In this document: positions 1,612 through 60,973 of the stretch, piece by piece
Position numbering within the stretch: position 1 is the stretch's first letter
Layout of the letters: each line of letters opens with the position of its first letter
Origin: a virus
Lineage: Duplodnaviria > Heunggongvirae > Uroviricota > Caudoviricetes
Direction: 5' to 3' (one strand)
IMG/VR virus record: IMGVR_UViG_3300010998_001290
Length of the DNA stretch: 64,000 nucleotides
The notes under the pieces: generated by a model
Databases searched by the model: none
What the model was told of the DNA's origin: nothing
Seen by the model: only the letters and a program-made list of their open reading frames with translations
Translations under genes and position numbers: made by a program

Positions 1612-1624
1612 ATGCCCGAAATAG

Positions 1625-1660: not shown

Positions 1661-1713
1661 GTTCAGAGTGGTATTTAGTCAAAATATGAATAATATAGAA
1701 AGGTGTGTATGAA

Positions 1714-2907: not shown

Positions 2908-2918
2908 TGGAGGTTAAT

Positions 2919-3833: not shown

Positions 3834-3842
3834 GAGGAATAT

Positions 3843-5731: not shown

Positions 5732-5745
5732 AAATACCCAAAAGT

Positions 5746-5780
5746 AAGAGAGAGCAGCAATGCTCTCTTTTATTTTTTTG
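5746..5780 (+). terminator. intrinsic terminator
   Basis: AGAGAGC-agcaat-GCTCTCT hairpin plus a T-tract. Confidence 0.7.
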
Positions 5781-5786
5781 AAAAGA

Positions 5787-5836
5787 TGTGTACGAAAGAC
5801 AATAGTTTTTCTTTTTCCTTCTGCTTAATCATACTA
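5787..5836 (+). promoter_or_regulatory. promoter cassette: TGTGTACGAAAGACAATAGTTT upstream box, 21 nt, CATACTAATAGT
   Basis: Motif shared with four other sites. Follows the terminator at 5746-5780. Confidence 0.6.
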
Positions 5837-5867
5837 ATAGTGACACACTTAAGGAAGGGGGATAAAA

Positions 5868-6527
5868 GTGAAAATTGAAGTAAAGGAGTACCTCAGGTCA
5901 AGGTCAGAAAGCTATGAATACGCTGTGAGGCACGCCAGCAGGCTTAATCTGAACATTGCATTGGTCTTAAGTGCAGTTACAGGTGAATTTTACACACAGC
6001 ACGCTTCGTACATAGACTTGATACCGACAGAAGACATCGTTATATGTCAGTTCACCGAACACGAAGAGGCTTCCGAGGATGAAACACTTCCCGGAAAACT
6101 GCTCCTGAAAGCAGAAGGACTCATAGATACAGATGAGGTTGAGAAGAACCAGAAGAAGGGAAAGCTTATATATATGTATGAGTTTGAGCTTTATGGTTCG
6201 GGACGAATGACAGAAGCACAAACGAGTGGACTTGAAACGGTTGTAAGGTTTACCGGTCCTATCACACAGGTACAGCTTGATAACGCTTACAAAATCGCAA
6301 AAGATTATATGACTGCTCGCAAAACAAACGAAGCTGCTAAGCGTCTCATCTTCGATATTGAGGTAGTCAATCGACCGGGAAACGTCATAAAGCCGGATGA
6401 GGAGCGAGACTATTGCACTTGTCCCAATTGCGGTCATCAGCTTACAGGCAGCGAATATAGTCTGTTCGGTGAACACAACGGCAAAAACTTCTGTGAAAAC
6501 TGTGGGCAGAAGCTTGTTTGGACATAA
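5868..6527 (+). CDS. hypothetical protein with C-terminal CxxC..CxxC zinc ribbon
   Basis: GTG start after a GGAAGGGGG RBS. 'CTCPNCGHQ...CENCGQK' motif. Confidence 0.6.
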   Translation: MKIEVKEYLRSRSESYEYAVRHASRLNLNIALVLSAVTGEFYTQHASYIDLIPTEDIVICQFTEHEEASEDETLPGKLLLKAEGLIDTDEVEKNQKKGKLIYMYEFELYGSGRMTEAQTSGLETVVRFTGPITQVQLDNAYKIAKDYMTARKTNEAAKRLIFDIEVVNRPGNVIKPDEERDYCTCPNCGHQLTGSEYSLFGEHNGKNFCENCGQKLVWT

Positions 6528-6577
6528 GATTATACACATCCTTTCACTTAAGAACGAGCGTTTTCCTTCTGAACAAT

Positions 6578-6584
6578 CATACTA
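6578..6584 (+). promoter_or_regulatory. CATACTA -10-like promoter element
   Basis: 'caATCATACTAaatat' between genes. Confidence 0.45.
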
Positions 6585-6614
6585 AATATGACGGTTCTGA
6601 AGGAGGTGAGAAAG

Positions 6615-6989
6615 ATGCACGATTTATGTCACGAACTGGATCTGATATGCAAACACATCCCTTATATAAAGGGAGAAAACGAGAAGCATGAGAAAGCTAT
6701 AGTATTTAAGGTAGGAAAGATGATCGGCAAGGTCGAATTCTTGGAATCCGACTATGTCGAAGAAGCGTATGACAGACTTAAGGTGTCAATAATACACCCC
6801 GAAGTCGGGACTATTGACCATATTGAAATCGAATTCAGGTATATTCTTGACAGCGAATGTTACCTGAAAATTGATGAATTATCGGCTGACTGGCATACCA
6901 GTAGGAAGATTTGCAGAGAGTTATCGGAAGACGACTACAAGCTTATCGCCGAGGTTGCCTTGTCATATCTGAAGGAATTTGACTATTGA
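6615..6989 (+). CDS. hypothetical protein
   Basis: GAAGGAGG RBS 7 nt upstream. The track start at 6588 lies inside the promoter element. Confidence 0.6.
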   Translation: MHDLCHELDLICKHIPYIKGENEKHEKAIVFKVGKMIGKVEFLESDYVEEAYDRLKVSIIHPEVGTIDHIEIEFRYILDSECYLKIDELSADWHTSRKICRELSEDDYKLIAEVALSYLKEFDY

Positions 6990-7004
6990 TAATCAGGAGG
7001 AATA

Positions 7005-8753
7005 ATGATGATTAAGGAACTGTTAAAGAAGTATTCGTACGATGATGTATGCGCATCTATAATAAGGTATGTGTACCGAAATATGGAATGTGCGCCTAAT
7101 GCAAGCTCTGACTTTATGGCGGAACTCAAGAAGGGCAAGGATGAGATCGTAGAGTACTTCGAGGAGGAAAAGGTAGACCAGAGCATCCAGAATGTTCTGT
7201 CTATGTTTGAAGAGGTCGCCAGCGAGAGAAGCAGGGGTGTCGTATACACACCTTTCAAGGTTTCCAAGCTCATGTTTGATAAGATAGAGGACTATAATAC
7301 CGGCATCAAGTTTATGGATCCCTCCTGCGGCAGCGGCGCAATACTCGTTAATCTGGTGGATTATATCCATAACAAGTTTATGATTTCGCCTATCGACATC
7401 ATCAACAACAGCATTTACGGCATGGACAATGACTATTTCAGCACTAAGCATTGCAAGTTTCTTCTTGAACTGCTTTGCCTCAAGCTCGGATATCACGCTG
7501 ATGGGCTCAAGATGCACATAGTCAATAACAACAGTATGCTCGTTGATTGGGATACCCTCGGCGTAAGAAAGTTTGACTACATCTTCGGCAATCCGCCTTA
7601 TATCGCTTTAAGGGATATGGATAAGGAAGAGCGCGAGCAGTATGAGAAGCAGTATGAAGTCGCTAAGGGAACATACAATATGGCGCATCTGTTCCTTGAA
7701 AAGGCTATAAAATATGTTAAGCCTAACGGCACTATATCATTCCTTGTCATCAATAATCTTTTCACACACATCTCATCGAAACCGGTAAGAGAACTCATAA
7801 TGCGCACAGGCTATCTTCACGAGGTTATTGAGTTCAATAAGATAAGGTTGTTTGAGAATGCCGAGGTGCTTACCACGCTTATCACATTAAAGGCTGCGTC
7901 GCATACCAAATTCGGCTATGCGAGACCTGAAGCTCTTAATAAGATAGTTCTTGTACAGCTTCCGCTGTCGGAACTTAAGGCTGAAGAATGGGTGTTTGCG
8001 AACGCAAAACAGAAGGAATACCTTGAGCATATCAGGTCTTTTGATACTAAGCTTAAGCCCTATATGAGCGGTTGTATAGCAACTCTTGCCGATAAGGTGT
8101 TCATTCTTGACGATGACGGAAAGACAAGAAGCAACCCCAAGAGACAGAGAGCCATAAAAATCGAGGATGGTATAATCAAGGAAATGTATCGTCCTCGCAA
8201 TATGGAAGGTGAAAAGGCTAAGAAGCTGAAGGTACTGTTTCCGTATGACGAAGACTTTAACACGCTGAGTCTCGATGATATTAAAGAAAGGTTCCCTAAG
8301 GCTTATCAGTATCTTAAAAACAACGAGGAAAAGCTGAAGCAGAGAAGCTGGCAGGATCAGTGGTACGCGTTCGGCAGAAGACAGGGGCTTGCAGTGGAGC
8401 ATAAGGCTGTTCTATTCGGCTGCTATTCCAGAAAGCCGAGATTTATCGTTCCTGATGACGATACGGCACTTCTTCTTAGCGGCGCGTACATAAGCAGCAA
8501 CATACCGGTGAAGCCTGATGTGCTTGCGGTTATCCTGAATTCCGATGTAATGGCGTGGTATATTAAGAAGGTATCGTTCCCCATTTACGGAGACTATTAC
8601 TACTACGGCAAGAAGGTCGTGGGCGACTTCTCGATACCTCCGCTTACCGAGGAAGAGGAAAAGGCGCTGCTTTCTATGACGAAGAGCGAGGTTAACGAAT
8701 TCCTTATCAAGAAGTACGATATAGAGGGTATCGAACTCGAAGAAACGGCATAA
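7005..8753 (+). CDS. N6-adenine DNA methyltransferase (gamma-class, Eco57I/TaqI-like), orphan
   Basis: Motif I '[13 protein letters not shown]' and motif IV 'IFGNPPY'. AGGAGG RBS. 582 aa with a C-terminal target-recognition-like region and no nuclease domain. Confidence 0.85.
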
Positions 8754-8763
8754 GGAGGCTTTT

Positions 8764-9207
8764 ATGAGTACGGTATATATATACAGTGACGGCGCATGTT
8801 CGGGCAACCCCGGTCCCGGAGGATACGGGGTTCTGCTCCGGCAGAAAGACAAGGAACTTGAGCTTTCAGGCGGCGAACCGGAGACAACCAATAACAGGAT
8901 GGAGCTTATGGGCGTTATTACGGGGCTTGAAGCTCTCAAAAAGCCCTGCAAGGTAATCGTCCAGACTGACTCTAAGTATGTTGTTGACGGCATAATGAAG
9001 GGCTGGGCTAAGTCTTGGAAGAAGAATGGCTGGGTTAAAGGCGATAAGAAGCCTGCGCTCAACGCAGATCTATGGGACAGACTCCTAAACCTGCTTGAAA
9101 AACACGAGGTAGAGTTTAACTGGATCAAAGGTCATGCAGGGCATCCTGAGAACGAAAGATGTGACAAACTGGCTGTAGCGGCACGCAAGAAATATGTACA
9201 CAAGTAA
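8764..9207 (+). CDS. rnhA: ribonuclease HI
   Basis: '[14 protein letters not shown]', 'TNNRMEL', 'QTDSKYV', 'WKKNGW', '[14 protein letters not shown]' are the canonical RNase H catalytic motifs. AAGGAGG RBS. Confidence 0.9.
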
Positions 9208-9222
9208 GAGGAGGAAATACAT

Positions 9223-9942
9223 ATGAATGTAAAGCAGCTTATTGACAAATGTGACGTCACCCTTCTTACCGACCAGTATCTCAATATGAACCCTGTTCCT
9301 ATTGCGGAGAGGGAAGATGAGGCGAGAGCGTTCTTAGATTTCCTGACAAGGCTTAAGGAAATAAAACCGTCTGTATCTGAGAACTACATACTTGTGTATA
9401 AGGGTTATGACGGAGATAAAGAGTTCCTGAACGCCGCTATGTTCGAGGCATCCGACATTCGAGAAAAAGTACATGATGTGTACGAATTCGATAAGCTTTT
9501 ATTCCCTGAAGACCTTTCGGATGAAGGATTTGAGGGCTTAAGAGAAATATGTAACGACTTTTTACATAATAACTATGCCATTGACTTCATCGAATGGGAT
9601 AGAGTTCTCGGCTTCAATACTGACGAAGACAACATAAAGGAGTTCGGAGCTGAAGCTGTTGCAGTAGCTATCCTCACCGAAATGACCTTTGTTTCGTTCT
9701 ACGAAGAGGATATAAAAGCCAAAAGACAGGAGATCGATGATGCTTTATCGGAGGTCGAAGAGCTTTGTGCGTCATCTTTAGAAGAAAGTAAGCTCAAAGA
9801 ACATGATCTTTTCGAGTTTAAGGACAATCGGACAGAGGAAGAAAAAGAAGTTGACAGGAAAAAGGCGCTTAAGGAGTATGTTCTTACGACGATAAGTATG
9901 TATAAGGCGTTGAAGCCTGTACATAAAAGGCTTAACGGCTGA
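9223..9942 (+). CDS. hypothetical acidic protein
   Basis: GAGGAGG RBS. Continuous ORF with codon usage like its neighbours. Confidence 0.6.
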   Translation: MNVKQLIDKCDVTLLTDQYLNMNPVPIAEREDEARAFLDFLTRLKEIKPSVSENYILVYKGYDGDKEFLNAAMFEASDIREKVHDVYEFDKLLFPEDLSDEGFEGLREICNDFLHNNYAIDFIEWDRVLGFNTDEDNIKEFGAEAVAVAILTEMTFVSFYEEDIKAKRQEIDDALSEVEELCASSLEESKLKEHDLFEFKDNRTEEEKEVDRKKALKEYVLTTISMYKALKPVHKRLNG

Positions 9943-9993
9943 TATATCAGATAGCAGCCCAATGTCATTAAGTTAAGAAAAGGGGGATAAAAT

Positions 9994-10257
9994 ATGAAAA
10001 TATCAGAAGCAAAAGAGATAATAACAAGCCTTAAAAAATTATCGGTAAATTTAGAGAAATTACGCGCTTTATCAACAGGCAATATGGGGTCAATGGTAGG
10101 CGAAGTTAAGGCTCGTGAATGGTGCAAGAACATAGAAAGTATGGCAGATATATATAATACTCCACTCCCGCTTGTTTTTCAAGAAGCCAAAAATGTCGTT
10201 GATAATGAAATCAATAGACTGAATGATTTGATTGATAACACGGACATAAATCCTTAG
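9994..10257 (+). CDS. hypothetical small protein, flanked by 18-bp inverted repeats
   Basis: AAGGGGGA RBS. The stop codon lies inside the right inverted repeat. Confidence 0.55.
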   Translation: MKISEAKEIITSLKKLSVNLEKLRALSTGNMGSMVGEVKAREWCKNIESMADIYNTPLPLVFQEAKNVVDNEINRLNDLIDNTDINP

Positions 10258-10328
10258 CTTAATGACATTGTATAGCACCCGCCGGTTCACATGAACTGAC
10301 GGGGCTTTTTATTTTCAAAATAAAATAT

Positions 10329-10335
10329 CATACTA
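10329..10335 (+). promoter_or_regulatory. CATACTA -10-like promoter element
   Basis: 'atatCATACTAttatt' after a T-tract. Confidence 0.45.
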
Positions 10336-10388
10336 TTATTATACAACCTAAACGAAGGTTGCAAAATGTACGGTAAAGGAGCATTATA

Positions 10389-10955
10389 ATGTTTAAGAAG
10401 AACGAAATCAAGAAGGCTCTTCATACAATATGTAAGAGCGAAACAATCAGCAAATCTATTCTTTCCGGTAAAACAGACGCCGAACAGTCCGATGCGGCGT
10501 TTATCAAAGGATATTCGGCTAAGATGTACTCAGACGAACTTTACGAATTCCTTAACGATGAGGCAATATCAGAACTTAAGTGTATAGAGTTTGGCGACAC
10601 TGCTGACCTTGGTGTTCTCGGCGAATGTGTATCTCACACCAATACATCTGTTAATCTGAATACTGAAATGTATGGCAACAGTAACAGAGTAGAGCGCGTC
10701 TGCAAGATAGGAACATCGAGCAAGACGGGTAGTGGTGAAACTGAAGAGACCGACGCGTTCAGGGTACAGCAGGATGAAACGACTTACATTACCGAGAACG
10801 GCAATGTGCTGACAGTAAAGGAAATCACCTATATGAAGGGCAACAAGGCGCTTGTTACGGTAAGAATCCCCGATGCTGCCATCGCACCGTCCTTCAACTT
10901 GATAAGCGGGTTACTCTCGGCTGAAGACGCAGAAGCAGAAGAAGTATCAGATTGA
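10389..10955 (+). CDS. hypothetical protein
   Basis: AAAGGAG RBS. Preceded by a CATACTA promoter element. Confidence 0.6.
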   Translation: MFKKNEIKKALHTICKSETISKSILSGKTDAEQSDAAFIKGYSAKMYSDELYEFLNDEAISELKCIEFGDTADLGVLGECVSHTNTSVNLNTEMYGNSNRVERVCKIGTSSKTGSGETEETDAFRVQQDETTYITENGNVLTVKEITYMKGNKALVTVRIPDAAIAPSFNLISGLLSAEDAEAEEVSD

Positions 10956-11031
10956 GCCATTTGCCGGGGTCAATATAATCTTAATGACTAATGGAATTGA
11001 GAGTACGATAACACTTAAGTATCGGTAAGAC

Positions 11032-11120
11032 ATGGTTACAGCGGCAATAATGGTCGCGGGAATACCTGCGGCTGCGGCAGTGACGGCGTTTGAAAAGGAT
11101 TCCGGCAAATGTTCAATAGT
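11032..11120 (+). repeat. GC-rich ~90-nt non-coding element, copy 1 (homologous to 19505-19625), ending in the shared CCCCTC..GAGGGG terminator
   Basis: Blocks 'cggcaataatggtcgcgg', 'gcggcagtgacggcg', 'tttgaaaagga' align with the second copy. GC is well above the local average. Confidence 0.5.
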
Positions 11121-11146
11121 CCCCTCTTCGGAGGGGATTTTTGCTT
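11121..11146 (+). terminator. intrinsic terminator
   Basis: CCCCTC-ttcg-GAGGGG plus a T-tract. Confidence 0.7.
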
Positions 11147-11167
11147 TCCGATTTCCAAATAAACAAT

Positions 11168-11174
11168 CATACTA
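11168..11174 (+). promoter_or_regulatory. CATACTAATAGT promoter element
   Basis: After the terminator at 11121-11146. Confidence 0.55.
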
Positions 11175-11210
11175 ATAGTAAGCTTTTTAGAAAGGAAGGT
11201 TTTTAAAACT

Positions 11211-11951
11211 ATGAAAAAGCGTACAGTAGGCGCTCTTTTAGCGAGCGCTTTAATGGCAATAATGACAGTAAGCGGATGCTCAGGGCAGAGCTCGGATAGG
11301 ACTCCGACAGGAACTCTTGCATCTACGACAACAACCAAGGCTACAACAAAGGCGACGACAGAAGAAACGGAGGAAACAACCGTGGAAGTTGAAGAGACAG
11401 AGATCGAGACCGAAGCGACGATAGAGGAAGAAGAGGAAAGCGCAGAGCCTACCGAGAAGCAGGCGGAGCTTATTGCCTTCCTTATGGAAGATCTGGACGA
11501 GAACCCTAACTCAAAGGAAAATAAGACGGCAGAGCTTAAGGAGAGTGGCTGGACGGACGAAGATATTGAGTTCGCGTTTGATTATCTTCAGGTAGATTGG
11601 GGGTATGTAGCGTCTATCAAAATGTTCAGTCTTATGGCGGATACCGAAAATCTTTCCGCGCAGGCTGTAGTAAACGAACTCAGCGGGCTCGGCTTTACAA
11701 ACGAGGAAATCGAGACAGCAATCAACGATGATATGATTGACTGGCACGAACAGGCGTTCTTTGCGGCAACCTCACTTATAGAGGATGATATGTCAATGGA
11801 AGACCTTAAGAAGAAAATGGTCGAAGATTATCTGTTTACCGAAGAGGAAGCAGACTACGCAATCAAGACCCTTGAAGATTCTGATTTCAGTTTTGAGTAC
11901 GACGGCGACATAGAAATCGGGGATGTATTCTATCCCGAAGAAGAGGAATAA
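11211..11951 (+). CDS. acidic lipoprotein
   Basis: Signal peptide with lipobox 'TVSGC', Thr/Glu low-complexity linker. AAAGGAAGG RBS. Confidence 0.7.
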   Translation: MKKRTVGALLASALMAIMTVSGCSGQSSDRTPTGTLASTTTTKATTKATTEETEETTVEVEETEIETEATIEEEEESAEPTEKQAELIAFLMEDLDENPNSKENKTAELKESGWTDEDIEFAFDYLQVDWGYVASIKMFSLMADTENLSAQAVVNELSGLGFTNEEIETAINDDMIDWHEQAFFAATSLIEDDMSMEDLKKKMVEDYLFTEEEADYAIKTLEDSDFSFEYDGDIEIGDVFYPEEEE

Positions 11952-12003
11952 TTAACATTAAGCCTTCCGTTTGGAGGGCTTTTTGTTTTTGCAACTACTC
12001 TGT

Positions 12004-12010
12004 CATACTA
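12004..12010 (+). promoter_or_regulatory. extended -10-like TGtCATACTA promoter element followed by a ~165-nt leader
   Basis: 'gcaactactcTGtCATACTAtat' after a terminator. Confidence 0.55.
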
Positions 12011-12176
12011 TATAAGCAAACACTCTTGACGCTTATATGTGATGAGCCTTCCCAGCGCTCCTTTTAGGATTATTAGAGTAAGTGTAAATGAGAAGTAGTT
12101 CGCATTTTCTCAAATAATCTGTGCTCATCAATGAAGCATTGAGAAGTTTGAATAATACTTAAAGGAGGAATTAGCA

Positions 12177-13634
12177 ATGGTTAATTCAAGAAAGTCGGTT
12201 TTTACGAAAGCCGCAGCGATAGCAATGTCTATCACAATGCTTACATCAGCGTTATCGTTTGGTGTTAACGCATCAGCAGCAGACCTCGAAAGTACAGCAA
12301 CAGTTGCATCATCCGGACCTGTAGTATCGTGTCCGATTGAAGATGGTGTTCTTTACATAACTATCGAGGGCGGTCAGTGGAAACACTGGATTGAGTACGC
12401 CTCCGGCGAAGCAACATCGGGATACGGCACGCTTGATATCAAGACAATCAACGGAGTTGAAACATTCATTTATTCGGATACTGACGGAAATGTAATTCTT
12501 CAGTGGGATGAAGAGGCTCCCTCTAATTCCGGCGGCAGAGGCGATATCACTGATGGCGAAGAAGAGGAGAACGAAGAGGAGACCGGTGCGGTTGACCTCA
12601 AAATCGCGGAAAAGCTTCTGAATATGCTTTATGCAGAACAGAGTGCGTTGAGCGAGGAAGCGGGCTACTTCAACGATATGTACAAGGAACTGAAGTCGTC
12701 AATATCTGAAGCTACAACGATAAAATCAGTTCTGAGAAACACGATGTCCAACGATGAACTGGCTGACATCACAGAGTATATCAAAGCCGCTAATAAGCAG
12801 AAGACATATGCTTATAATCAGTATAAGCGTTTCAATTCTGCTGCTACAAGATGCGGGAATGAGATAAGACTTATCGAAAAACGTCTCGGCAAGAGTAATT
12901 CCGTAGTAGATGTATCCGGTGGAGAAGGCACTTCGTCTAAGAGCGCAGGCACAGGCGGTCTGTCCTTCTGGAAGAGCAGTGCTTATCAGAACGCGGCATC
13001 TAACGGCTATGGTGATGCAACAGATAAGATCGTTACATTCTCCGATGACGAAAAACTGTTCCTTAAGGCGATAAACGAGTATAAGCAGAGTTATTCCACT
13101 AAGGTTTATGCTGTAATTACAGTAAGAAGCAAGACGGAGACTTACTACCTTAAGTATTTCCCCAAGGATAAGGCTGTGTACAGAGTAACTGTAAAGGGCA
13201 CGAAGCTCAGTAATACGCCTGAATACAGTTCGGCGGATATAGCGAAGGGACTGCTCAAGAATTATAAGTTCGCTTATGATAAGCTGAAACAGATCCTTAA
13301 CTATGATTACGCGGTATATACGGCTGCTACCTCTTTCTATGAAGAAAAGGGCAAGCTGTTAAACGAGAAGTATAACGCCATAAAGGACTATAAGACGGAA
13401 CACAAAAAGGATTTTTCTGTAGCTGAACGCGAAACTGTTGATGCAATCATCAACACGTTGGGAGGCAGCGGCACACATCATTATAGGGTTATGGCTGTAA
13501 AGACCGGTAAGATATACCAATCTGGTCCCATAAGCCTTTACAAGTATGCTGCGAAGGAAGTTGAAAAGACAGCGAAATCTATGGGTGTAACGCTTACGTC
13601 TACCGCGACCTCTGGCGATACAGCTAACGGATAA
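12177..13634 (+). CDS. secreted protein, paralogue family member A
   Basis: Sec signal peptide 'AAAIAMSITMLTSALSFGVNASA'. Paralogous to 14328..15920. AAAGGAGG RBS. Confidence 0.75.
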   Translation: MVNSRKSVFTKAAAIAMSITMLTSALSFGVNASAADLESTATVASSGPVVSCPIEDGVLYITIEGGQWKHWIEYASGEATSGYGTLDIKTINGVETFIYSDTDGNVILQWDEEAPSNSGGRGDITDGEEEENEEETGAVDLKIAEKLLNMLYAEQSALSEEAGYFNDMYKELKSSISEATTIKSVLRNTMSNDELADITEYIKAANKQKTYAYNQYKRFNSAATRCGNEIRLIEKRLGKSNSVVDVSGGEGTSSKSAGTGGLSFWKSSAYQNAASNGYGDATDKIVTFSDDEKLFLKAINEYKQSYSTKVYAVITVRSKTETYYLKYFPKDKAVYRVTVKGTKLSNTPEYSSADIAKGLLKNYKFAYDKLKQILNYDYAVYTAATSFYEEKGKLLNEKYNAIKDYKTEHKKDFSVAERETVDAIINTLGGSGTHHYRVMAVKTGKIYQSGPISLYKYAAKEVEKTAKSMGVTLTSTATSGDTANG

Positions 13635-13660
13635 GGCTTTTATCACCGACATATTACAAG

Positions 13661-13690
13661 ACCCCGTTCTATACGGGGTTTTGTTTTTGC
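13661..13690 (+). terminator. intrinsic terminator
   Basis: CCCCG-ttctata-CGGGG plus TTTTGTTTTT. Confidence 0.7.
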
Positions 13691-13701
13691 AACTGCTCTG
13701 T

Positions 13702-13708
13702 CATACTA
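13702..13708 (+). promoter_or_regulatory. extended -10-like TGtCATACTA promoter element
   Basis: 'gcaactgctcTGtCATACTAat' after the terminator at 13661-13690. Confidence 0.55.
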
Positions 13709-13762
13709 ATCTCACAGGCTTTAAAGGCTTGGAATTATTTTATTATTAAGGAGGAGATAACA

Positions 13763-14209
13763 ATGGTTAATCTCAAGAAAACGGTAGCATCGCTTTTAGC
13801 GGTAACGGCAATCATTTCGTCCATGTCAGTAGGGGCAAGTGCGGCGACGGTTTATTCGTCCGGCGGCACAAGTAGCTCGTCAAGCAGCTCATCTAACTCG
13901 TCCTCCAGCAGCGGTACAAACAGCGGTTCAGGGTCAAGCTCAGGCAGCTCATGGAACGGCGGAGTATCACGCAGTTCAGGACTGAATATTGACGCCAAAA
14001 GTATGACCGGTAGCGGTACATTTAAATCACCTTATAAGGCAGTGAAGGGAACTCTTACTGTAAGAGCACCCGGCAAACTCACAAAGACCACAAAGACTAC
14101 CGTAAACGGCAGGAAGGTCACTGTTCTGACCTACAAAGGTGCTAACAGCAACGATACCGTTTATGTACAGAAGGGTTCAATACTCTACAAGTACGTACTT
14201 ACTAAGTAA
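13763..14209 (+). CDS. secreted Ser/Gly-rich protein, signal peptide related to the flanking paralogues
   Basis: Signal peptide 'LLAVTAIISSMSVGASAATVYSSG' matches 14328's 'LTSALSVGASAATIYSSG'. AAGGAGGAG RBS. Confidence 0.7.
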   Translation: MVNLKKTVASLLAVTAIISSMSVGASAATVYSSGGTSSSSSSSSNSSSSSGTNSGSGSSSGSSWNGGVSRSSGLNIDAKSMTGSGTFKSPYKAVKGTLTVRAPGKLTKTTKTTVNGRKVTVLTYKGANSNDTVYVQKGSILYKYVLTK

Positions 14210-14267
14210 ATCATAACACAAACAAAGCTCCTCCTCTGAGGGGCTTTTGTTTTTTGTATTAGTCTGT

Positions 14268-14294
14268 CATACTAATACATGCGAATGATGACAT
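14268..14294 (+). promoter_or_regulatory. TGtCATACTA promoter element plus the 16-bp perfect palindrome CGAATGATGACATTCG
   Basis: The palindrome begins 5 nt after the -10-like element. Confidence 0.5.
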
Positions 14295-14327
14295 TCGTAT
14301 ACATTATTAAAGAAGGAGGAGTTAACG

Positions 14328-15920
14328 ATGGTTACTTCAAAGAAAAACGCGATGATAAGAGCGGCGGCTATAGCTATGTCTTTGACGATGCTTACATCTG
14401 CTTTATCTGTCGGAGCAAGCGCGGCAACTATCTATTCAAGTGGTTCTGCTTCAAGTTCAAACAACGAATCAAGAGACAATGATATTGGACCTGCAATCAT
14501 TGCTTTCCCGTTAGCGGAAGGTGTTCTCCATATCACTACGGGGAATTCGACAGGTTCTTGGACGCAGCATTGGATAGAAGCTTATCCGGAAGGGGCTATG
14601 TCGGCAGACGAGCTTTATGTCCTCACACAAGTGGAAGGCAATAAGGGTATTGATTATGCGCTTACCGATCCTTCGGGCAATATCGTTCAGCAATGGACGG
14701 AAGAGTATTCCTATCCTACAGGGGGCGTACTCGAAGCAGAGGCGATAGAACTTACTGAAGAGGAAGCCGAAAGGATTACAAGTTCCTTAAGGAAAGACTA
14801 TGCAGCGGCCGGAGAGATCGATAACGAGCTCGGTTATCAGCTTCTCGATGCTCTTTACGAGGAACAGACGGTATTGACAAAAGCTGTAAACTTCTATAAG
14901 GAGTTATCAACCTCGCGCAGGGAATCGGCAAAGGGCGCGGCTAATGTCAAGGTAAAGCTTTCAGCGGCGCTTTCCAGTGCTCAGAAGAACGACCTTACAG
15001 ATTACATCAACAATTGTAATAAGGAAGCGTCATACTTCACGAGACGGGCAACCACGCTTAATAGTATGCTTTCTCAGACAAAAACGGAGATAAAGAGACT
15101 TACAAAGGCTCTGGGCAACATCTCTAAGAAATATGGCTCCGGTGACGAAAAAGAGTATTTTATTCCGGTGTATGGCGGCTTAAGTGAGAATATAGACACT
15201 TCTACAACAAGAATGAGCAACGATGGCTACTTCGCATTCTGGAACAGCTATCATATAGGTAATGCTCTCGGAGTTGACACAAGCTCAGGAATGTATCTCG
15301 TTATAGGCAAGCCGATAGTAGGTATTTCGGGGGATATGGCACTTCTCTTAGCACTTTGCAACAATCCCGGCAAGCCTTATGACCTTACGAACTCAAAAGG
15401 TGAGACTGTTTATGTTGCTTACATAGGCGGCAAGGTCTATAATGTGGACGCAAAGGGCAAAAAGCTCAGCAAGAAGGAAGCATTTGACATCAGCGATACC
15501 GTTAAGCATATCGTAGGTCGTTATTCCTTAAGCAGCAGCGAGGCAGCTCTTAACGCTTCACTTGAGGAAAAGCTGGTCTATGAGACGGCGGCGGACTTCT
15601 ATAAGACAAAATCCGAAGAAATCAAGGAAATTGTATCTCTTCTGAAGAAGTATAAGAACGATAATTCCAAGACATTATCTTCTACCGACAAATCTAAGCT
15701 TACAGCTTATATTAACGCTTATAACAGCTCAGCAACCTACTTCACGAGAAGAAAGAACTCGTACACAAGTATGTCGAAGACGGCGAATACTGAGGCAAAG
15801 AGACTTTCTAAGCTTCTTGAGGTAACAGGCGACAGTTCCGGCAAGACAGGCGACTTCGGCTTCTGGAAGACGGCTCTTACAGAGGGAAGATTCGTTCCGA
15901 CATATATGTACGCTTCGTAA
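14328..15920 (+). CDS. secreted protein, paralogue family member B, with an internal duplication
   Basis: Signal peptide almost identical to 12177's. Internal repeats 'YINNCNKEASYFTRR' and 'YINAYNSSATYFTRR'. GAAGGAGGAG RBS. Confidence 0.75.
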   Translation: MVTSKKNAMIRAAAIAMSLTMLTSALSVGASAATIYSSGSASSSNNESRDNDIGPAIIAFPLAEGVLHITTGNSTGSWTQHWIEAYPEGAMSADELYVLTQVEGNKGIDYALTDPSGNIVQQWTEEYSYPTGGVLEAEAIELTEEEAERITSSLRKDYAAAGEIDNELGYQLLDALYEEQTVLTKAVNFYKELSTSRRESAKGAANVKVKLSAALSSAQKNDLTDYINNCNKEASYFTRRATTLNSMLSQTKTEIKRLTKALGNISKKYGSGDEKEYFIPVYGGLSENIDTSTTRMSNDGYFAFWNSYHIGNALGVDTSSGMYLVIGKPIVGISGDMALLLALCNNPGKPYDLTNSKGETVYVAYIGGKVYNVDAKGKKLSKKEAFDISDTVKHIVGRYSLSSSEAALNASLEEKLVYETAADFYKTKSEEIKEIVSLLKKYKNDNSKTLSSTDKSKLTAYINAYNSSATYFTRRKNSYTSMSKTANTEAKRLSKLLEVTGDSSGKTGDFGFWKTALTEGRFVPTYMYAS

Positions 15921-16126: not shown

Positions 16127-16786
16127 ATGAACTACGAAATGCCTATACGCTTTTTTGACGCACAGGGCGGAAGAGTATTCTCGCTTATCGGAGAGATAAA
16201 CGAATCTGTGTACGAAAACAGGGCGAAAATCATCGACAAGAGGCTGTACGACATTCCGACTGTAAACGAAGGGGCTACAGCTAAACTCTCAAATGAACTT
16301 TCTGCAAAGGATAGGAGCTGGATAACAGAGCTTTTCACAGTAAAGTTCATTTATTGGGCAAAGAAGGGTATCCTTGGTGTAGCAGGAGCCGCTGCTGAGA
16401 TAGAAAATTTCAGCGTTCCTTCAAGCGCAGTCATCTTCCAGAACGGATACGACCGCGATTATGCGTGCGAGTCTTATCCTAAACTTCCGTTCTTTCAGGT
16501 TATGATCCAGAGGAACAGGGAGCTTTCGGTCGAAGATATACGTCGGATTGCCAACAGAACCGCCGATGAAAGCGAGGACTACGTCAACATCGTCGTGCGT
16601 GATACATATCTCTACGATTGTATCGAAAGCGAACTCGAAATTCCTGCTATCATCGCCGGAACAGAAGGCGAAAGCTTTGAAACTATCAGCATCAATGCTC
16701 TTAACAGCTTTGATAAGGTCAAGACCGTAGAAAAGATGGTCTATGACTACATCTATCGTGAGCAGTTAAGACGCGAGCTTAAGTAA
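16127..16786 (+). CDS. hypothetical protein
   Basis: AAAGGAAAG RBS region. Preceded by a full tripartite promoter cassette. Confidence 0.6.
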   Translation: MNYEMPIRFFDAQGGRVFSLIGEINESVYENRAKIIDKRLYDIPTVNEGATAKLSNELSAKDRSWITELFTVKFIYWAKKGILGVAGAAAEIENFSVPSSAVIFQNGYDRDYACESYPKLPFFQVMIQRNRELSVEDIRRIANRTADESEDYVNIVVRDTYLYDCIESELEIPAIIAGTEGESFETISINALNSFDKVKTVEKMVYDYIYREQLRRELK

Positions 16787-16796
16787 TGGGGGTTAT

Positions 16797-17456
16797 ATGA
16801 ACTGTAATAAGAAAATTGATAACGGGATAATAAAGCTTACACGCCCTGAGCTTCAGGAAAACGAGCGATATTGTCCCGCTTGTGATGGCTACGGCTATGT
16901 AATGAACGGATATGGGTGGTTTCAGCCTTGCCCTAAATGCGATTGGGGCAAAGTCTACTTATGCCCTCATGGAAATATGACAAGCAATGTCAATAACTGT
17001 TCCTGCTTCTTATGTGTCAAAGACCGTAACGAAAAAAGCTTTAAAAGCCAAATTAAGATCACAAAAGCCAGACCTCTCGAAGAAGTACCTGAAGATGAGA
17101 AGATAATGTTCTTCTCGGAATATATGGGTGAGTATGGCGACTATTTCAGTGACATTGAAGAGCTGGTCGATTACTGTTTGACCAACAGCAAGGATATTCC
17201 TGATTATGTGTGGCCGACGGTGAAGAGTACTATTGCAACTGAGCTTAACGCATATAGCATCATTGAGGAGGCGTGTGAAAACTTACACACAGATGCGATG
17301 GATTTCATATCCAATGATGATATTAAGGCTCTTGACACAAAGCTTCAGGAATGGGCAAGTGGTATAACCGGCACTGAAACCTATTATCAGCTCGATTATT
17401 ACCGCATAGATATAAAAGATGCGGTAAAAGAGATACTTGAGAGAAGAAAGGACTAA
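16797..17456 (+). CDS. hypothetical protein with a DnaJ-CR-like zinc finger (CxxCxGxG) and extra Cys clusters
   Basis: 'CPACDGYGYV...CPKCDWG...CPHG'. GGGGG RBS. Confidence 0.6.
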   Translation: MNCNKKIDNGIIKLTRPELQENERYCPACDGYGYVMNGYGWFQPCPKCDWGKVYLCPHGNMTSNVNNCSCFLCVKDRNEKSFKSQIKITKARPLEEVPEDEKIMFFSEYMGEYGDYFSDIEELVDYCLTNSKDIPDYVWPTVKSTIATELNAYSIIEEACENLHTDAMDFISNDDIKALDTKLQEWASGITGTETYYQLDYYRIDIKDAVKEILERRKD

Positions 17457-18737: not shown

Positions 18738-18813
18738 AGATCATCTATGGTAATACCATATCAACTTCAAAGACCCCTTGTATAAGGGGTTTTTGTTTTT
18801 CTTGGGCAACAAT

Positions 18814-18820
18814 CATACTA
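18814..18820 (+). promoter_or_regulatory. CATACTAATAGT promoter element
   Basis: After the terminator at 18772-18800. Confidence 0.55.
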
Positions 18821-18866
18821 ATAGTAGCAGGGAAACCTGAAATCAACAAGAAGGAGGAAAACGGCA

Positions 18867-20731: not shown

Positions 20732-20773
20732 CATACTAAAATATAGAATCATTATCTGAGACGAATGGAGTTT
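20732..20773 (+). promoter_or_regulatory. CATACTA plus GACGAATGGAG cassette; leader 29/30 identical to the 16032-16061 copy
   Basis: After the terminator at 20677-20718. Confidence 0.6.
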
Positions 20774-26651: not shown

Positions 26652-26686
26652 AAAGGCTTGCTTCGGCAAGCCTTTATTATTTTCGG
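26652..26686 (+). terminator. intrinsic terminator
   Basis: AAGGCTTGC-ttcg-GCAAGCCTT plus a T-rich tail. Confidence 0.7.
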
Positions 26687-26690
26687 CAAT

Positions 26691-26697
26691 CATACTA
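26691..26697 (+). promoter_or_regulatory. CATACTAATAGT promoter element upstream of the ABC transporter genes
   Basis: After the terminator at 26652-26686. Confidence 0.55.
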
Positions 26698-26765
26698 ATA
26701 GTAGCCAAATTCAGCGATTGCGGGATTTCGGAGGCTATTACAGATATAGAAAGAGAGACTATATT

Positions 26766-28696: not shown

Positions 28697-28732
28697 CATA
28701 CTAATTATAGGTGCATTTTATGACGAATGGAG
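28697..28732 (+). promoter_or_regulatory. CATACTA plus GACGAATGGAG cassette upstream of the second MTase
   Basis: After the terminator at 28651-28678. Confidence 0.6.
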
Positions 28733-28770
28733 TTTTATGCACGAATGAGAATTGAAAGGAACTGAAAAAT

Positions 28771-31000: not shown

Positions 31001-31123
31001 ACTACATGGCATTTGAATTGCCGAGGATTCCCGCCCGGAAATTGCAACTGAGGCAAATATTATAATTCTCATTCTTAAGGAAAGCTCACAGAAATGTGGG
31101 CTTTTTCTTATTTGAAAATAGGC

Positions 31124-31173
31124 TGTGTACGAAAAACAATAGTTTGTGATTTTCCTCACCAAAAATCATACTA
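31124..31173 (+). promoter_or_regulatory. TGTGTACGAAAAACAATAGTTT upstream box, 21 nt, CATACTA, upstream of the flotillin gene
   Basis: After the terminator at 31081-31108. Confidence 0.6.
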
Positions 31174-31220
31174 TTTACAGGGCATAGACCCAATGAAAAA
31201 TACTAAAGGAGGGCAATAAT

Positions 31221-32807
31221 ATGCCAGATTTTGAAGTAAATCCCGCAATCGTAATCGGTGTAATCGCGGTTATAGTGGTAGCAATCATTATTTCGCTTGG
31301 TTACATCAAGGTCCCACCCGACAAGGCTTATATCATCACAGGTATAAAGCGTCGTAGGGTAATCGGAAAAGCAACGATAAGGATCCCATTCCTTGAGCGT
31401 CTCGACAAACTCAACCTTGCCGCTATGCAGGTCGATGTTGTCACAAGGACACCGGTTCCTACCGCCGACTACATCAACATAAGGGTAGACTCCGTAGTCA
31501 ATATCAAGATACCAACTGAAGATATTGTACTGGAACACCTCAATGAAAACGGCGAAGCAGTAACAGTGACCTATCCGGCTGATAAATGTCTTGAGAAGGC
31601 TCAGCAGAACTTCCTTAACAGAGACCAGCAGTACATCGTAAAGATAGCATCTGAGGTGCTTGAAGGTAATGTCCGCGAGATTATCGGACAGATGAAGCTC
31701 GAAGAAATGGTATCCAACCGTCAGAGATTCGCGGAGCTTGTAAGGCAGAATGCTGCGCCTGACCTTGCTGAACTCGGTTTGTCGATAGTGTCGTTCAATG
31801 TCCAGAACTTCTCTGATGACAACAATATTATCACCGATATGGGTATCGACAATACTATGCAGATCAAGAAGAGAGCGGCTATATCCAAGGCACAGGCTGA
31901 AAGAGATATATCTATAGCTCAGTCCGAAGCAAACAGGGAGTCGAACGACGCTCAGGTCAACTCCGAAACAGCTATCGCAGAACGCCAGAACGAACTGGCT
32001 ATCAAACAGGCAGAGCTTAAGAAACTCTCTGACATCAAGAAGGCGGAATCCGATGCAGCTTATAAGATTCAGGAAGAAGAGCAGAGAAAGACCATAGAAA
32101 TCACAGCTGCGAACGCTAACCTTGCAAAGCAGGAGAAGGAAGTCGAGATAAAAGCTAAGGAAGCTCAGGTAAGAGAACAGGCGCTTGAGGCTGAGGTCAA
32201 GAAGACGGCTGAAGCTGAAAAGTATGCGGCACAGCAGAGAGCGGACGCAGAACTGTACACAACCGCTAAGAAGGCAGAGGCTGACCTTATAAGAACCCAG
32301 AAGGCAGCGGAAGCAAAGAAAGCGGAAGCAGAAGCGGCAAGGTTTGCGGCTGAACAGGAAGCTGAAGGTATCAAAGCAAAGGGTCTCGCGGATGCAGAGG
32401 CTATCAAGGCGGCGGCATTGGCTGAGGCTGAAGGTCTCGACAGAAAAGCAGAGGCTATGCTTAAGATGCAGCAGGCGGCGGTACTTCAGATGTACTTTGA
32501 TAAGCTGCCCGATATTGCAAAGGCTGTGGCTGAACCTCTTTCTAAGACAGATAAGATCATTATGTACGGCGAAGGCAACTCTTCTAAGCTGGTAGGAGAC
32601 ATCACAAAGTCAATAAGCCAGATAAACGAAGGTATGCTCGAAGGCACAGGTATAAGCTTACAGAGTCTGCTGAACGCTTTCGTATCGGGTAAGGCGGCAG
32701 GTACGGCTGTAGCCAATGCTGTACAGAGCAGCGGCGAGACGAAGAGTGCATCTGTGGCAGACGAAGCTGATACAAGTGGCGTATACGAAGCTACGGAAGA
32801 AGAATAA
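31221..32807 (+). CDS. flotillin-like SPFH/band-7 domain membrane protein
   Basis: N-terminal TM helix, SPFH core 'YIITGIKRRRVIGKATIRIPFLERLDKLNLAAMQVDV', long Ala/Glu coiled coil typical of flotillins (FloT/YqiK). AAAGGAGGG RBS. Confidence 0.8.
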   Translation: MPDFEVNPAIVIGVIAVIVVAIIISLGYIKVPPDKAYIITGIKRRRVIGKATIRIPFLERLDKLNLAAMQVDVVTRTPVPTADYINIRVDSVVNIKIPTEDIVLEHLNENGEAVTVTYPADKCLEKAQQNFLNRDQQYIVKIASEVLEGNVREIIGQMKLEEMVSNRQRFAELVRQNAAPDLAELGLSIVSFNVQNFSDDNNIITDMGIDNTMQIKKRAAISKAQAERDISIAQSEANRESNDAQVNSETAIAERQNELAIKQAELKKLSDIKKAESDAAYKIQEEEQRKTIEITAANANLAKQEKEVEIKAKEAQVREQALEAEVKKTAEAEKYAAQQRADAELYTTAKKAEADLIRTQKAAEAKKAEAEAARFAAEQEAEGIKAKGLADAEAIKAAALAEAEGLDRKAEAMLKMQQAAVLQMYFDKLPDIAKAVAEPLSKTDKIIMYGEGNSSKLVGDITKSISQINEGMLEGTGISLQSLLNAFVSGKAAGTAVANAVQSSGETKSASVADEADTSGVYEATEEE

Positions 32808-32857
32808 GATGTAAAAGCAATGGCAGACGGCGGTAAGATTTTTCCGATTCCAGCAAT

Positions 32858-32864
32858 CATACTA
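32858..32864 (+). promoter_or_regulatory. CATACTAATAGT promoter element followed 45 nt later by a strong terminator (small-RNA candidate)
   Basis: No ORF lies between the promoter and the terminator at 32908-32950. Confidence 0.5.
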
Positions 32865-32907
32865 ATAGTGTAGAATTTCTTACTGCCATTGGAAATTATA
32901 CATATAA

Positions 32908-32950
32908 AACGGGGTTTCTCTGAAGAGGGGACCCCGTTTTTGTTTTTGCA
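32908..32950 (+). terminator. intrinsic terminator
   Basis: AACGGGGT-ttctctgaagagggg-ACCCCGTT plus TTTTGTTTTT. Confidence 0.7.
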
Positions 32951-32997: not shown

Positions 32998-33113
32998 CTA
33001 TTCCTAATGTGCATTTGCGCAGAGATAGTTTTGAAGTTCGTCTATTTTTATGTCTAAATAGTACGACTGCCGTGTGCAGTAAAACACATTTAACATAAAA
33101 AGGAGTAATCACT

Positions 33114-33641: not shown

Positions 33642-33794
33642 ATTATTAGATATACGGGGCGACTCGACGTCCTTGGAACGATGAAGTACCTATCAATCAT
33701 AGGCAACTCTCGTTAAGGTTAATCCTTCCATAATATTCCGGGAGGCGCTTGTTGAAGTGCGAGAGTTTTCATGTTTGTTTGCGAAGAGGTGCTT

Positions 33795-34232: not shown

Positions 34233-34460
34233 GTGAGAAAGATGATACCTGTGGGTACATACGTTCAGCTTAAGGAACCCGAAAACGGAAGGCGCTTTCC
34301 CGGAAAGGTAGCCAAAAATACCGATGAAGGGGTAAAAGTCGTGTTTCCTACGGGATATTATGTGATTTTCCCGGAAGAAAGATGGGAAATTTTAAAGAAA
34401 AGCACTGTAAAGGAGGGAGAAATCAATGAAGACGACGGATCCGAAGGAGAAGATGCTTAA
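34233..34460 (+). CDS. hypothetical small protein
   Basis: GGGGTGAGAAAG RBS. Confidence 0.5.
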   Translation: MRKMIPVGTYVQLKEPENGRRFPGKVAKNTDEGVKVVFPTGYYVIFPEERWEILKKSTVKEGEINEDDGSEGEDA

Positions 34461-35130
34461 TGAAATAGCTCGAACGAATGCAAATGGGGCTTTTATAGTT
34501 CCTGAAGGCATTGAGATCATAACAGGGGATGTTACCTATCCCTCTGACTTAAGGAAGCTTATACTCCCTGAAAGCGTAAAATCCGTTGAAAGGCTTGCTT
34601 TTCAAGGCTGTACCACACTTGAGTCTGTTGAAGGCGGGAACATCAGCAAGATAGGGGCTTATTCCTTCTCCGGCTGTACAAGTCTTAGCAGGTTTGATTT
34701 CGTACACAACTGTGAAATAGGAAACGGAGCGTTCTCGGAATGTGCCTTTACTAATCTGTCATTCGAGAATTGCAGGCTTCAGAGCAAGGCTTTTGAAAGC
34801 TGCAAAAGACTTAAGCGCGTCGTAATGGACGAAAGCACGACTGCCGAATACGATACATTCGATGAATGTACCGCGATAGAAAGCTTTATTTATTCAGGTA
34901 AAGAGTATGAAGCTTTTTGTATAAAAGGGACATGCCTTATAATAAAAGAGCGGTATATCGTTGACGGCATAGATGTTATCGAGGCGATGCACCCCGATGA
35001 TTTAAGCAATCCCACAACACGGATATTTGTCTGCTCAAAAGACGGTGTGTGGGAAAGCGACAACAATATTCGAGGCTGTATTCGTAAGCTTGAAAGGAAA
35101 ATAGGCATAAGCAGCCTCTACAGCGAGTAA
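34426..35130 (+). CDS. BspA-type LRR protein, seventh, dispersed paralogue
   Basis: AAGGAGGGAG RBS. 'LAFQGCTTLESV...AYSFSGCTSLSRF...GAFSECAFTNLSF' repeats. Confidence 0.65.
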   Translation: MKTTDPKEKMLNEIARTNANGAFIVPEGIEIITGDVTYPSDLRKLILPESVKSVERLAFQGCTTLESVEGGNISKIGAYSFSGCTSLSRFDFVHNCEIGNGAFSECAFTNLSFENCRLQSKAFESCKRLKRVVMDESTTAEYDTFDECTAIESFIYSGKEYEAFCIKGTCLIIKERYIVDGIDVIEAMHPDDLSNPTTRIFVCSKDGVWESDNNIRGCIRKLERKIGISSLYSE

Positions 35131-47602: not shown

Positions 47603-47632
47603 AGGACGCTTCGGCGTCCTTTTTGTTTTTCT
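47603..47632 (+). terminator. intrinsic terminator (GGACGC-ttcg-GCGTCC family, repeated at 48191 and 43675)
   Basis: Perfect hairpin plus TTTTTGTTTTT. Confidence 0.75.
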
Positions 47633-47643
47633 TTCAGGTCTTT

Positions 47644-47678
47644 CATACTATATATGCGGTTCATTATGACGAATGGAG
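47644..47678 (+). promoter_or_regulatory. CATACTA plus GACGAATGGAG cassette
   Basis: After the terminator at 47603-47632. Confidence 0.6.
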
Positions 47679-48232: not shown

Positions 48233-48268
48233 CATACTAACTATAGCATTATTTTCAGACGAATGGAG
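48233..48268 (+). promoter_or_regulatory. CATACTA plus GACGAATGGAG cassette
   Basis: After the terminator at 48191-48221. Confidence 0.6.
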
Positions 48269-48318
48269 TGATAATGAAATGCTGAAATTCTATTATATGT
48301 ATAGGAGGAGAATATGTG

Positions 48319-58389: not shown

Positions 58390-58597
58390 AATCATACTAT
58401 CTATAGAAACGTAAGATAATTACTTGCATCGGGCTGGCTCGACAGCCTTGTAGTGACGTAGTGGCAGCTATACGCTGTTAACTCTCACTAAGGTAAATCC
58501 CGCAATAGTATTCCTGCGGGCGCTTATAGTAGTGCGAGACCGCACACCCGGAGTTATGATAAGGCGACATCGAATGTGAGATGAAATAGGAGGTTCT

Positions 58598-60966: not shown

Positions 60967-60973
60967 AGAAAGG

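Follow-up and report, generated by a model that had tools for sequence, protein, structure and literature searches.

A full-length flotillin gene as a separately promoted unit on a large, plausibly mobile element of gut Clostridia

NfeD proteins are thought to stabilise flotillin oligomers in Firmicutes. In the usual arrangement, the flotillin gene comes second in an operon with NfeD (PMC11222466). The stretch of viral DNA analysed here, 64,000 nucleotides of the IMG/VR record IMGVR_UViG_3300010998_001290 (in the following: the window), carries a flotillin gene that stands alone on what is plausibly a large mobile element. This raises the question of where the gene came from, how its product can do without the usual partner and what it may do for its carrier. 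Our answer is that the gene probably encodes a working flotillin, captured long ago from Oscillospiraceae-like Clostridia by an element of at least 301 kb, and that the protein would act as a scaffold or holdase for the host membrane.

The assignment of the 528-residue product to the flotillin/SPFH proteins, made in the initial annotation, is borne out by several searches. The Pfam Band_7/SPFH model (PF01145) matched with 68.7 bits (E=8.8e-19), well above its cut-off of 23.6. The NCBIfam model for FloT (NF058507) aligned end to end, with residues 16-488 of the protein covering positions 8-476 of the 477 in the model, at a score of 234.5 bits that misses the equivalog cut-off of 700. A match of the Pfam Flot model to the C-terminal region stayed below its cut-off of 27 bits (Table 1), while close homologues carry PF15975. 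On these scores, the protein is a member of the flotillin family (SPFH2) and not a FloT orthologue. Among solved structures, the best sequence matches were human flotillin-1 (E=6.6e-43) and flotillin-2 (E=1.2e-38); they span the SPFH domain, the coiled coil and the C-terminal region, with flotillin-1 residues 79-312 and 298-418 aligning to the window protein. No PHROG family and none of the PADLOC defence-system models matched it.

An AlphaFold2 (AF2) model, calculated with 50 homologues as input, reached a mean pLDDT of 69, with high confidence up to residue ~340 and low confidence past ~370. It consists of a membrane helix, an alpha/beta SPFH domain and one continuous helix of 157 residues. 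In agreement with the sequence searches, its top fold matches were the flotillin complexes 9l3g and 9bq2 (E ~1e-18), followed by stomatin, HflK/C, prohibitin, erlin and vault proteins, and the SPFH domain superposed on the Band 7 domain of mouse flotillin-2 (1win) with a TM-score of 0.75. An N-terminal membrane anchor is predicted for the window flotillin.

The lack of an NfeD gene, also pointed out in the initial annotation, extends well beyond the immediate neighbourhood. The window lies on a longer contig, of which positions 20,380-93,179 (~73 kb: the window plus 9 kb beyond) were searched for carrier gene content. None of the ~110 genes called there matched NfeD (PF01957), no small open reading frame (ORF) with several transmembrane (TM) segments is present in the window, and the immediate neighbours of the flotillin gene matched neither NfeD nor Hpt (histidine phosphotransfer) at E-values up to 1. 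The plasmid-borne flotillins of Priestia megaterium and E. faecium served as positive control; in both cases NfeD is encoded 15-20 nt upstream. An NfeD2 hidden Markov model (HMM), built from the NfeD proteins of these two Bacilli plasmids, was run on the window with its flanks, on five element loci and on 80 chromosomal loci, all translated in six frames. It recovered only its two source sequences and matched 0 of the 80 chromosomal loci, and 0 of 83 IMG/VR loci. The chromosomal loci (L051-L130) derive nearly all from metagenome-assembled genomes (MAGs) of Oscillospiraceae or Ruminococcus, whose flotillins are 55-64% identical to the window protein and rank as its nearest chromosomal relatives, and NfeD was not found in the precomputed Pfam data of the chromosomal relatives. 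As NfeD is absent from these 80 relatives too, the NfeD-free state appears to be a trait of the clade, and its interpretation as a peculiarity of the mobile element, proposed in the initial annotation, is not supported. Single-gene SPFH2 units are known exceptions to the usual arrangement: 17 genomes with an SPFH2 gene but without NfeD2 have been described, and NfeD2 proteins are poorly conserved (PMC2636767).

The chromosomal relatives have a different neighbour. Directly upstream of the flotillin gene and on the same strand, 34 of 77 chromosomal loci encode a protein of ~120 residues with a HALKGLSGN motif, which is an Hpt domain (PF01627). A local Hpt HMM detected it in 39 of the 80 chromosomal and in 0 of the 83 viral loci, and the gene is absent from the window. 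Where present in chromosomes, it lies 11-90 nt upstream of the flotillin gene (for example at 3602-3967 in locus L051 and at 5605-5967 in L007). Judging from this distribution, the element may have lost, or never captured, the Hpt neighbour. In Oscillospiraceae the Hpt gene occupies the slot that NfeD takes in other Firmicutes; no mention of a pairing of Hpt and flotillin was found in the literature searched.

The relationships of the protein point to an old capture. In a neighbour-joining tree the window protein is the sister of P0002 (71-72% identity), and this pair groups with P0003-P0006 outside the dense chromosomal clade of Oscillospiraceae. An insertion of 17-24 residues in the SPFH domain marks this group: the window protein and P0002-P0006 have it, the main chromosomal clade does not. 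The loci of these relatives are of various kinds. That of P0006 is chromosomal, next to sigE/spoIIGA-type genes; that of P0004 shows unidirectional genes without known relatives, plus HD and TerD genes; and P0002 is surrounded by genes for D5 primase, S26 peptidase, FtsH, VWA, EAL, HD, PIF1 and PspA on a contig of 134.7 kb with 35.8% GC, which has only the flotillin in common with the window. Of 279 alignment columns with at least 90% conservation among the chromosomal relatives, the window protein keeps 237; conservation does not extend to the C-terminal tail (aa 493-528). Estimates of dN ranged from 0.22 to 0.32 and dS was saturated, hence dN/dS could not be computed. A recent acquisition, considered because the gene has 48% GC against 43%, was rejected: the difference reflects the Ala/Glu-rich composition, while GC3 lies within one standard deviation and codon usage matches that of the element. 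Taken from these comparisons, the capture of the flotillin appears to be old and the gene to be under purifying selection.

The gene was initially described as a single-gene unit between terminators, and this view is retained, as no credible ORF other than that of the flotillin lies between the two terminator hairpins (Table 1). As read from the sequence, the flotillin gene is a monocistronic unit with its own promoter and terminator. The additional core-promoter copy between the stop codon and the terminator is 74% identical to a copy at 26664-26702. A transcript of ~70 nt with two hairpins is predicted from this copy in the region 32831-32945 (-28.3 kcal/mol, z=-4.2; without Rfam match) and is a possible small RNA.

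Table 1. Features of the flotillin transcription unit and of its product, in window coordinates.
Feature	Position	Strand	Basis
Intrinsic terminator ending the preceding unit	31079-31106	+	Terminator scan; RNA fold -16.8 kcal/mol, z=-5.07, then T-run
TGTGTACGA box, upstream promoter element (TGTGTACGAAAAACA)	31124-31138	+	One of 6 copies at 42-43 nt before TCATACTA
Core promoter: T-rich TTTTCC, 12-13 nt, TCATACTAW; TCATACTA at 31166-31173	31143-31176	+	Repeat family D1/D4/D6
Ribosome-binding site AAGGAGG, 8 nt 5' of ATG	31206-31212	+	Direct sequence reading
Flotillin coding sequence, FloT-type SPFH2, 528 aa	31221-32807	+	ATG start; stop codon within coordinates
N-terminal membrane helix (predicted), aa 8-26	31242-31298	+	Hydrophobic segment; helix 8-26 in AF2 model
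SPFH/Band_7 domain, aa 28-227	31302-31901	+	Pfam PF01145, residues 30-227; alpha/beta domain 28-199 in AF2 model
SPFH-domain insertion, 20 aa (aa 102-121), predicted beta-hairpin	31524-31583	+	Alignment; model strands 102-107 and 113-118
Ala/Glu-rich long coiled-coil helix, aa 212-368	31854-32324	+	AF2 helix; alignment to flotillin-1 coiled coil
Flotillin C-terminal (oligomerisation) region, aa 377-492	32349-32696	+	Weak Pfam Flot match, 20.7 bits; flotillin-1 alignment, query 368-482
Additional core-promoter copy between flotillin stop and terminator; unit membership uncertain	32831-32869	+	TCATACTA at 32857; repeat family D16
Intrinsic terminator ending the flotillin unit	32906-32940	+	14-bp stem, 6 GC pairs, T-run; -20.3 kcal/mol, z=-4.59

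The promoter of the flotillin gene belongs to a family that recurs across the window. The 8-mer TCATACTA, which resembles a -10 element, occurs 25 times on the plus and once on the minus strand, compared with 2.45 copies expected, and including near-variants the family has at least 28 copies of the form TTTTTGTTTTT-N12/13-(T)CATACTAWW. Nearly all are on the plus strand, and most lie directly 3' of a GC-rich terminator hairpin; examples are found at 11980-12013, 18790-18823 and 47620-47653. The invariance of TCATACTA suggests that these elements are used by a dedicated sigma factor or RNA polymerase and are not ordinary sigma-A promoters.

A subset of the family carries the box in addition. TGTGTAC is present in 34 copies in the window (4.2 expected), including the one upstream of the flotillin gene, and the 9-mer TGTGTACGA in 19 (0.25 expected). 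Six times, with none expected, the two elements are combined as TGTGTACGA-N33/34-TCATACTA, the boxes starting at 5787, 15978, 25693, 31124 (flotillin), 33593 and 58349. From this spacing we conclude that the TGTGTAC-box promoter named in the initial annotation is a real class, common to the flotillin and five other units. The activator function ascribed to the box is a less secure part of that claim, as the same 9-mer is enriched inside genes: 13 of the 19 copies are intragenic, on both strands. The copy at 25693 lies in a gene, at the 3' end, and is promoter-linked as well; the other 12 are at 9477, 15759, 16207, 23865, 25249, 30057, 33938, 34700, 45723, 50041, 56988 and 57225. All eight coding-strand copies share one frame, nnT GTG TAC GAn, encoding x-V-Y-E/D. 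Shuffling of synonymous codons yielded 0.73 +/- 0.78 copies compared with the 13 observed, which indicates selection on the DNA sequence of TGTGTACGA itself, well beyond promoters. A binding site of a sequence-specific protein, which might be an activator, would fit this pattern.

Other recurrent elements accompany the promoters. A conserved leader, GACGAATGGAG, with a GGAG Shine-Dalgarno sequence, is located 17-21 nt 3' of many TCATACTA elements (for example at 20760-20770, 28723-28733, 33000-33010, 47668-47678 and 48259-48269). Long 5' leaders of 130-200 nt follow two of the box promoters, at 33643-33770 and 58400-58600, and can be aligned with each other in the pattern CTCGAC...CCTTG...AACTCTC..TAAGGT..ATTCC..GGGCGCTT..AGTGCGAGA. 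They are possibly structured RNA; no Rfam family matched them at its gathering score. Searches for the promoter system elsewhere returned little. Both the 15-mer TGTGTACGAAAGACA and the generic promoter pattern gave a single match per contig in IMG/VR, at chance level, and one apparent promoter-motif relative (L145) was rejected, as its enrichment stems from an unrelated CATACTA tandem repeat. In a metagenome scan the pattern of box plus -10 element had no match, and that of promoter plus leader was found in four contigs (L189-L192), which have almost no proteins in common with the window and one of which encodes a CBM_2 protein, a serine recombinase and an integrase.

An identical flotillin is encoded on the JGI contig 3300011008 Ga0139362_1000266, which is 301,622 bp long and of which the window corresponds to approximately positions 20,380-84,379. 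In the part analysed nearly all genes are on one strand and most lack a Pfam match. Those with an annotation in the window region include two N6-adenine-type orphan methyltransferases (one with DUF4942), an RNase H, a DnaG-like primase, an XRE-type helix-turn-helix protein, an ABC-2 exporter, a RecJ-like exonuclease and a TnpB-like protein; DUF4314, DUF6378, phage ProQ_C-like, Lar, LPD28 and, faintly, YopX domains were also detected. Scans of the window for tRNAs and Rfam families were empty. There was no near-DNA match to the window in the phage record collection, and two window proteins without known relatives gave no match either, one of 530 residues in IMG/VR and one of 509 residues in the plasmid and phage collections. 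Judging from this gene content, the carrier is clearly not an ordinary chromosome. We regard it as plausibly a mobile element, either a jumbo phage or a megaplasmid of a gut Clostridia bacterium.

Several window genes encode proteins with signal peptides. Three neighbouring genes (12177-13634, 13763-14209 and 14328-15920) have near-identical, signal-peptide-like N termini (MV.SKK...AAAIAMS.TMLTSALS); their products lack relatives in Pfam and PHROGs and look like a family of secreted paralogues. Six tandem paralogous genes for BspA-type leucine-rich repeat (LRR_5) proteins are located at 143-5731 and a further LRR_5 gene at 34426-35130.

The flotillin of the window is one of many on large genomes. 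A profile-guided scan found relatives with 42-55% identity on at least 104 IMG/VR contigs, of which 80, mostly of 90-400 kb, were kept; together with L015 from an earlier scan, six contigs with a flotillin exceed 200 kb. By these counts, flotillins are not rare on large elements. The heavily sampled L212 lineage (~165 kb) is clearly phage, to judge from its flotillin-neighbour genes, which match phage-only PHROG families with up to 882 bits. Here the flotillin follows the NAD+ salvage genes for ribose-phosphate pyrophosphokinase, NAMPT and NAD synthetase (5756-9591). In other element neighbourhoods a LemA gene is found, and in seven IMG/VR contigs a gene similar to the major vault protein, with MVP shoulder and vault repeat domains, is near the flotillin (L013 at 12110-14629, L226, L227, L229, L248, L251 and L265); the vault fold is related to SPFH. 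Among deposited phage records, flotillin matches were limited to metagenomic 'Bacteriophage sp.' contigs and short fragments, probably host-derived. The literature searched offers almost nothing on why mobile genomes carry flotillins: phage SPFH proteins are annotated without explanation in the papers found (PMC3220722, PMC13239085), and flotillin was not named among the top-ranked papers in searches combining it with jumbo phages or megaplasmids.

Two large element-like contigs combine the flotillin with genes of membrane proteostasis. In L015 (290 kb) the order at 7695-13323 is SecY, a 226-residue protein, flotillin and FtsH; thymidine kinase and GyrB/GyrA are also encoded in this neighbourhood. 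In the P0002 locus (L002) it is S26 signal peptidase, FtsH, a 191-residue protein, VWA and flotillin at 2206-8401, with PspA farther away at 16195-16905. A general module of flotillin, FtsH, PspA and SecY on elements was rejected on the basis of local HMMs: among the 83 IMG/VR loci FtsH and SecY occur only in L015, while PspA, S26 and VWA occur in 0 of 83 and only in L002. In L015, a 1727-residue LRR protein is encoded two genes 3' of the flotillin, past FtsH.

Compared with known systems, the window protein has the overall plan of FloT/YuaG (SPFH2; FloT of B. subtilis, YqiK of E. coli), with membrane anchor, SPFH domain, a long EA-rich coiled coil and the C-terminal flotillin region. It differs in lacking the NfeD2 partner (YuaF/YqiJ), in the 20-residue SPFH insertion and in being encoded on a large element under an element-type promoter. 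With the human flotillin-1/2 complex (9bq2, 9l3g) it shares the fold and 26-28% identity over 433-460 aligned columns. Like the window clade, eukaryotic flotillins function without NfeD (PMC11222466). The human proteins form a 44-mer of two paralogues (PMC13000311) and attach to the membrane by a hairpin and acylation, whereas the window protein has a predicted TM helix and a single flotillin gene is seen in the window. The chromosomal flotillins of Oscillospiraceae and Ruminococcus (P0017, P0053, L051-L130) agree in length, domains and the lack of NfeD; the window differs from them by the missing Hpt gene, and they lack the SPFH insertion. Other large elements, comprising the IMG/VR contigs L013, L015 and L196-L271 and the element-like loci P0002/L002 and P0004/L134, also encode a full-length flotillin without NfeD or Hpt. 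Their genomes are 90-400 kb long and from gut-type samples, and RNase H is the only further gene that these contigs share with the window element. Vi01-like and other cultured phages also encode SPFH domain proteins (PMC3220722, PMC13239085), but these are of ~260 residues and either stomatin-like or lipoproteins, not full-length flotillins.

These comparisons allow a proposal for the role of the gene. The large element would have taken a FloT-type flotillin from an Oscillospiraceae-like lineage of Clostridia long ago. The gene would now be transcribed alone, from a stereotyped element promoter with an added TGTGTACGA box, up to its own terminator. Judging from flotillin biology, the N-terminal helix would anchor the protein in the cytoplasmic membrane of the host, and oligomerisation by way of the coiled coil and the C-terminal region would yield SPFH scaffolds or cages. 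In flotillins these two regions build oligomeric cages attached to the membrane (PMC11260169, PMC13000311). Flotillins also control membrane fluidity (PMC7360373) and stabilise clients that are unfolded and associated with the membrane; in vitro, flotillin by itself lowers client aggregation (PMC11222466). Such scaffolds may keep the membrane and assemblies of membrane proteins functional while the element resides or multiplies, and the extra scaffold or holdase capacity may help during expression of the element genes, when many secreted and membrane proteins are made. The protein would operate without NfeD since the entire donor clade does. In this proposal we infer the oligomerisation, the localisation, the benefit to the element and the regulation through the box.

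Several points weigh against the proposal. The C-terminal third of the AF2 model, which would contribute to oligomerisation, has a pLDDT below 50. The two-sequence NfeD2 HMM from Bacilli could miss a divergent partner, and a gene for NfeD, FtsH or PspA may be located on the remaining ~228 kb of the contig. The mobile nature of the DNA, assumed in the initial annotation, is plausible as stated above, but the hallmark genes that would settle it were not found in the window or the 9 kb beyond: neither capsid, terminase, portal and tail genes nor those for a relaxase, a replication initiator, partition and a type IV secretion system (T4SS). Neither the carrier contig itself nor a relative of it was found in IMG/VR or the phage record collection. 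Moreover, the best match of the RecJ-like DHH exonuclease is to the megaplasmid pRUMAL01 of Ruminococcus albus 7 (40.9% identity), and the window region 59281-61903 is syntenic with a stretch of this plasmid (L132, 20001-22661), where the RecJ-like gene is likewise followed by a gene for a protein of ~330 residues (26.7% identity). This synteny is the sole clue to the host genus; the promoter motifs of the window are absent from the plasmid stretch.

Synteny with pRUMAL01 would also fit a gene with ordinary housekeeping or accessory functions on a megaplasmid or chromid of a Ruminococcus-like bacterium; it would serve the host just like a chromosomal flotillin and have no element-specific role. 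Annotated flotillin genes on large Bacilli plasmids and the promoter-plus-leader motif in four other metagenome contigs, one with a CBM_2 protein and integrases, point in the same direction. We consider this explanation unlikely, however, as the window lacks the Hpt partner of 39 of the 80 chromosomal loci, the Bacilli plasmid copies keep NfeD while the window copy has an element-type promoter, and the surrounding genes are small, unidirectional and mostly without known relatives, some with domains of phage type (Lar, YopX, ProQ_C-like). That relatives are so numerous on large phage-like contigs also suggests selection on mobile genomes. Modulation of FtsH, suggested in the initial annotation, is similarly improbable. 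The flotillin would cage or tune FtsH of the host or the element in the manner of HflK/C, protecting element proteins or reprogramming turnover. A link between flotillin and FtsH has reportedly been observed in B. subtilis, HflK/C-FtsH cages (7wi3, 9cz2) are among the fold matches of the model, and FtsH is encoded within two genes of the flotillin in L002, the locus of the closest relative, and in L015. Yet these are 2 of ~86 element loci, with FtsH near the flotillin in 1 of the 83 IMG/VR loci besides L002 and in 0 of the 80 chromosomal ones, and no AAA/Peptidase_M41 gene was found in the ~73 kb around the window flotillin.

A role in superinfection exclusion or defence, with a membrane SPFH assembly that blocks the entry of competing phages or acts as a membrane effector or sensor, appears very unlikely. 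The annotation of Vi01-like phages places an SPFH/Band 7 protein immediately next to a superinfection exclusion protein (PMC3220722), and the window has restriction-related genes for orphan methyltransferases and Lar in its neighbourhood. The protein itself is, in contrast, a canonical full-length flotillin with most conserved columns kept, to which an effector domain is neither fused nor adjacent, and PADLOC has no model for it. Decay or neutral carriage of a gene acquired by chance is hardly credible: the absent partner genes and the unconserved C-terminal tail would allow it, but the ORF is uninterrupted, has a strong ribosome-binding site and is served by its own promoter and terminator, its codon usage has adapted fully to that of the element, dN falls far short of the saturated dS, and relatives recur across many large elements.

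A captured flotillin acting as scaffold or holdase for the host membrane is thus the reading we prefer. A broader version of it is conceivable, though we would only put it forward tentatively: an NfeD-independent flotillin might be routine equipment of the large phages and phage-like elements (100-400 kb) of gut Clostridia, a host-takeover factor that builds or stabilises membrane platforms for their replication, their assembly or the timing of lysis. In that case the window gene would be one instance, placed in a temporal promoter class through the TGTGTACGA box, and SPFH scaffolds would constitute a previously undescribed class of phage auxiliary genes.

The protein family and its likely biochemistry are ordinary, while the carrier is unusual and little studied. 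New are the full-length flotillin that forms a self-contained unit with a separate promoter on an element of 300 kb, the more than 100 large IMG/VR contigs with flotillin relatives, and a bacterial flotillin clade that, as in eukaryotes, is without NfeD. The value of these findings lies in ecology and comparative biology and not in a new mechanism. They provide a natural system for addressing what a flotillin does alone and whether large phages and plasmids manipulate the membrane organisation of their hosts.

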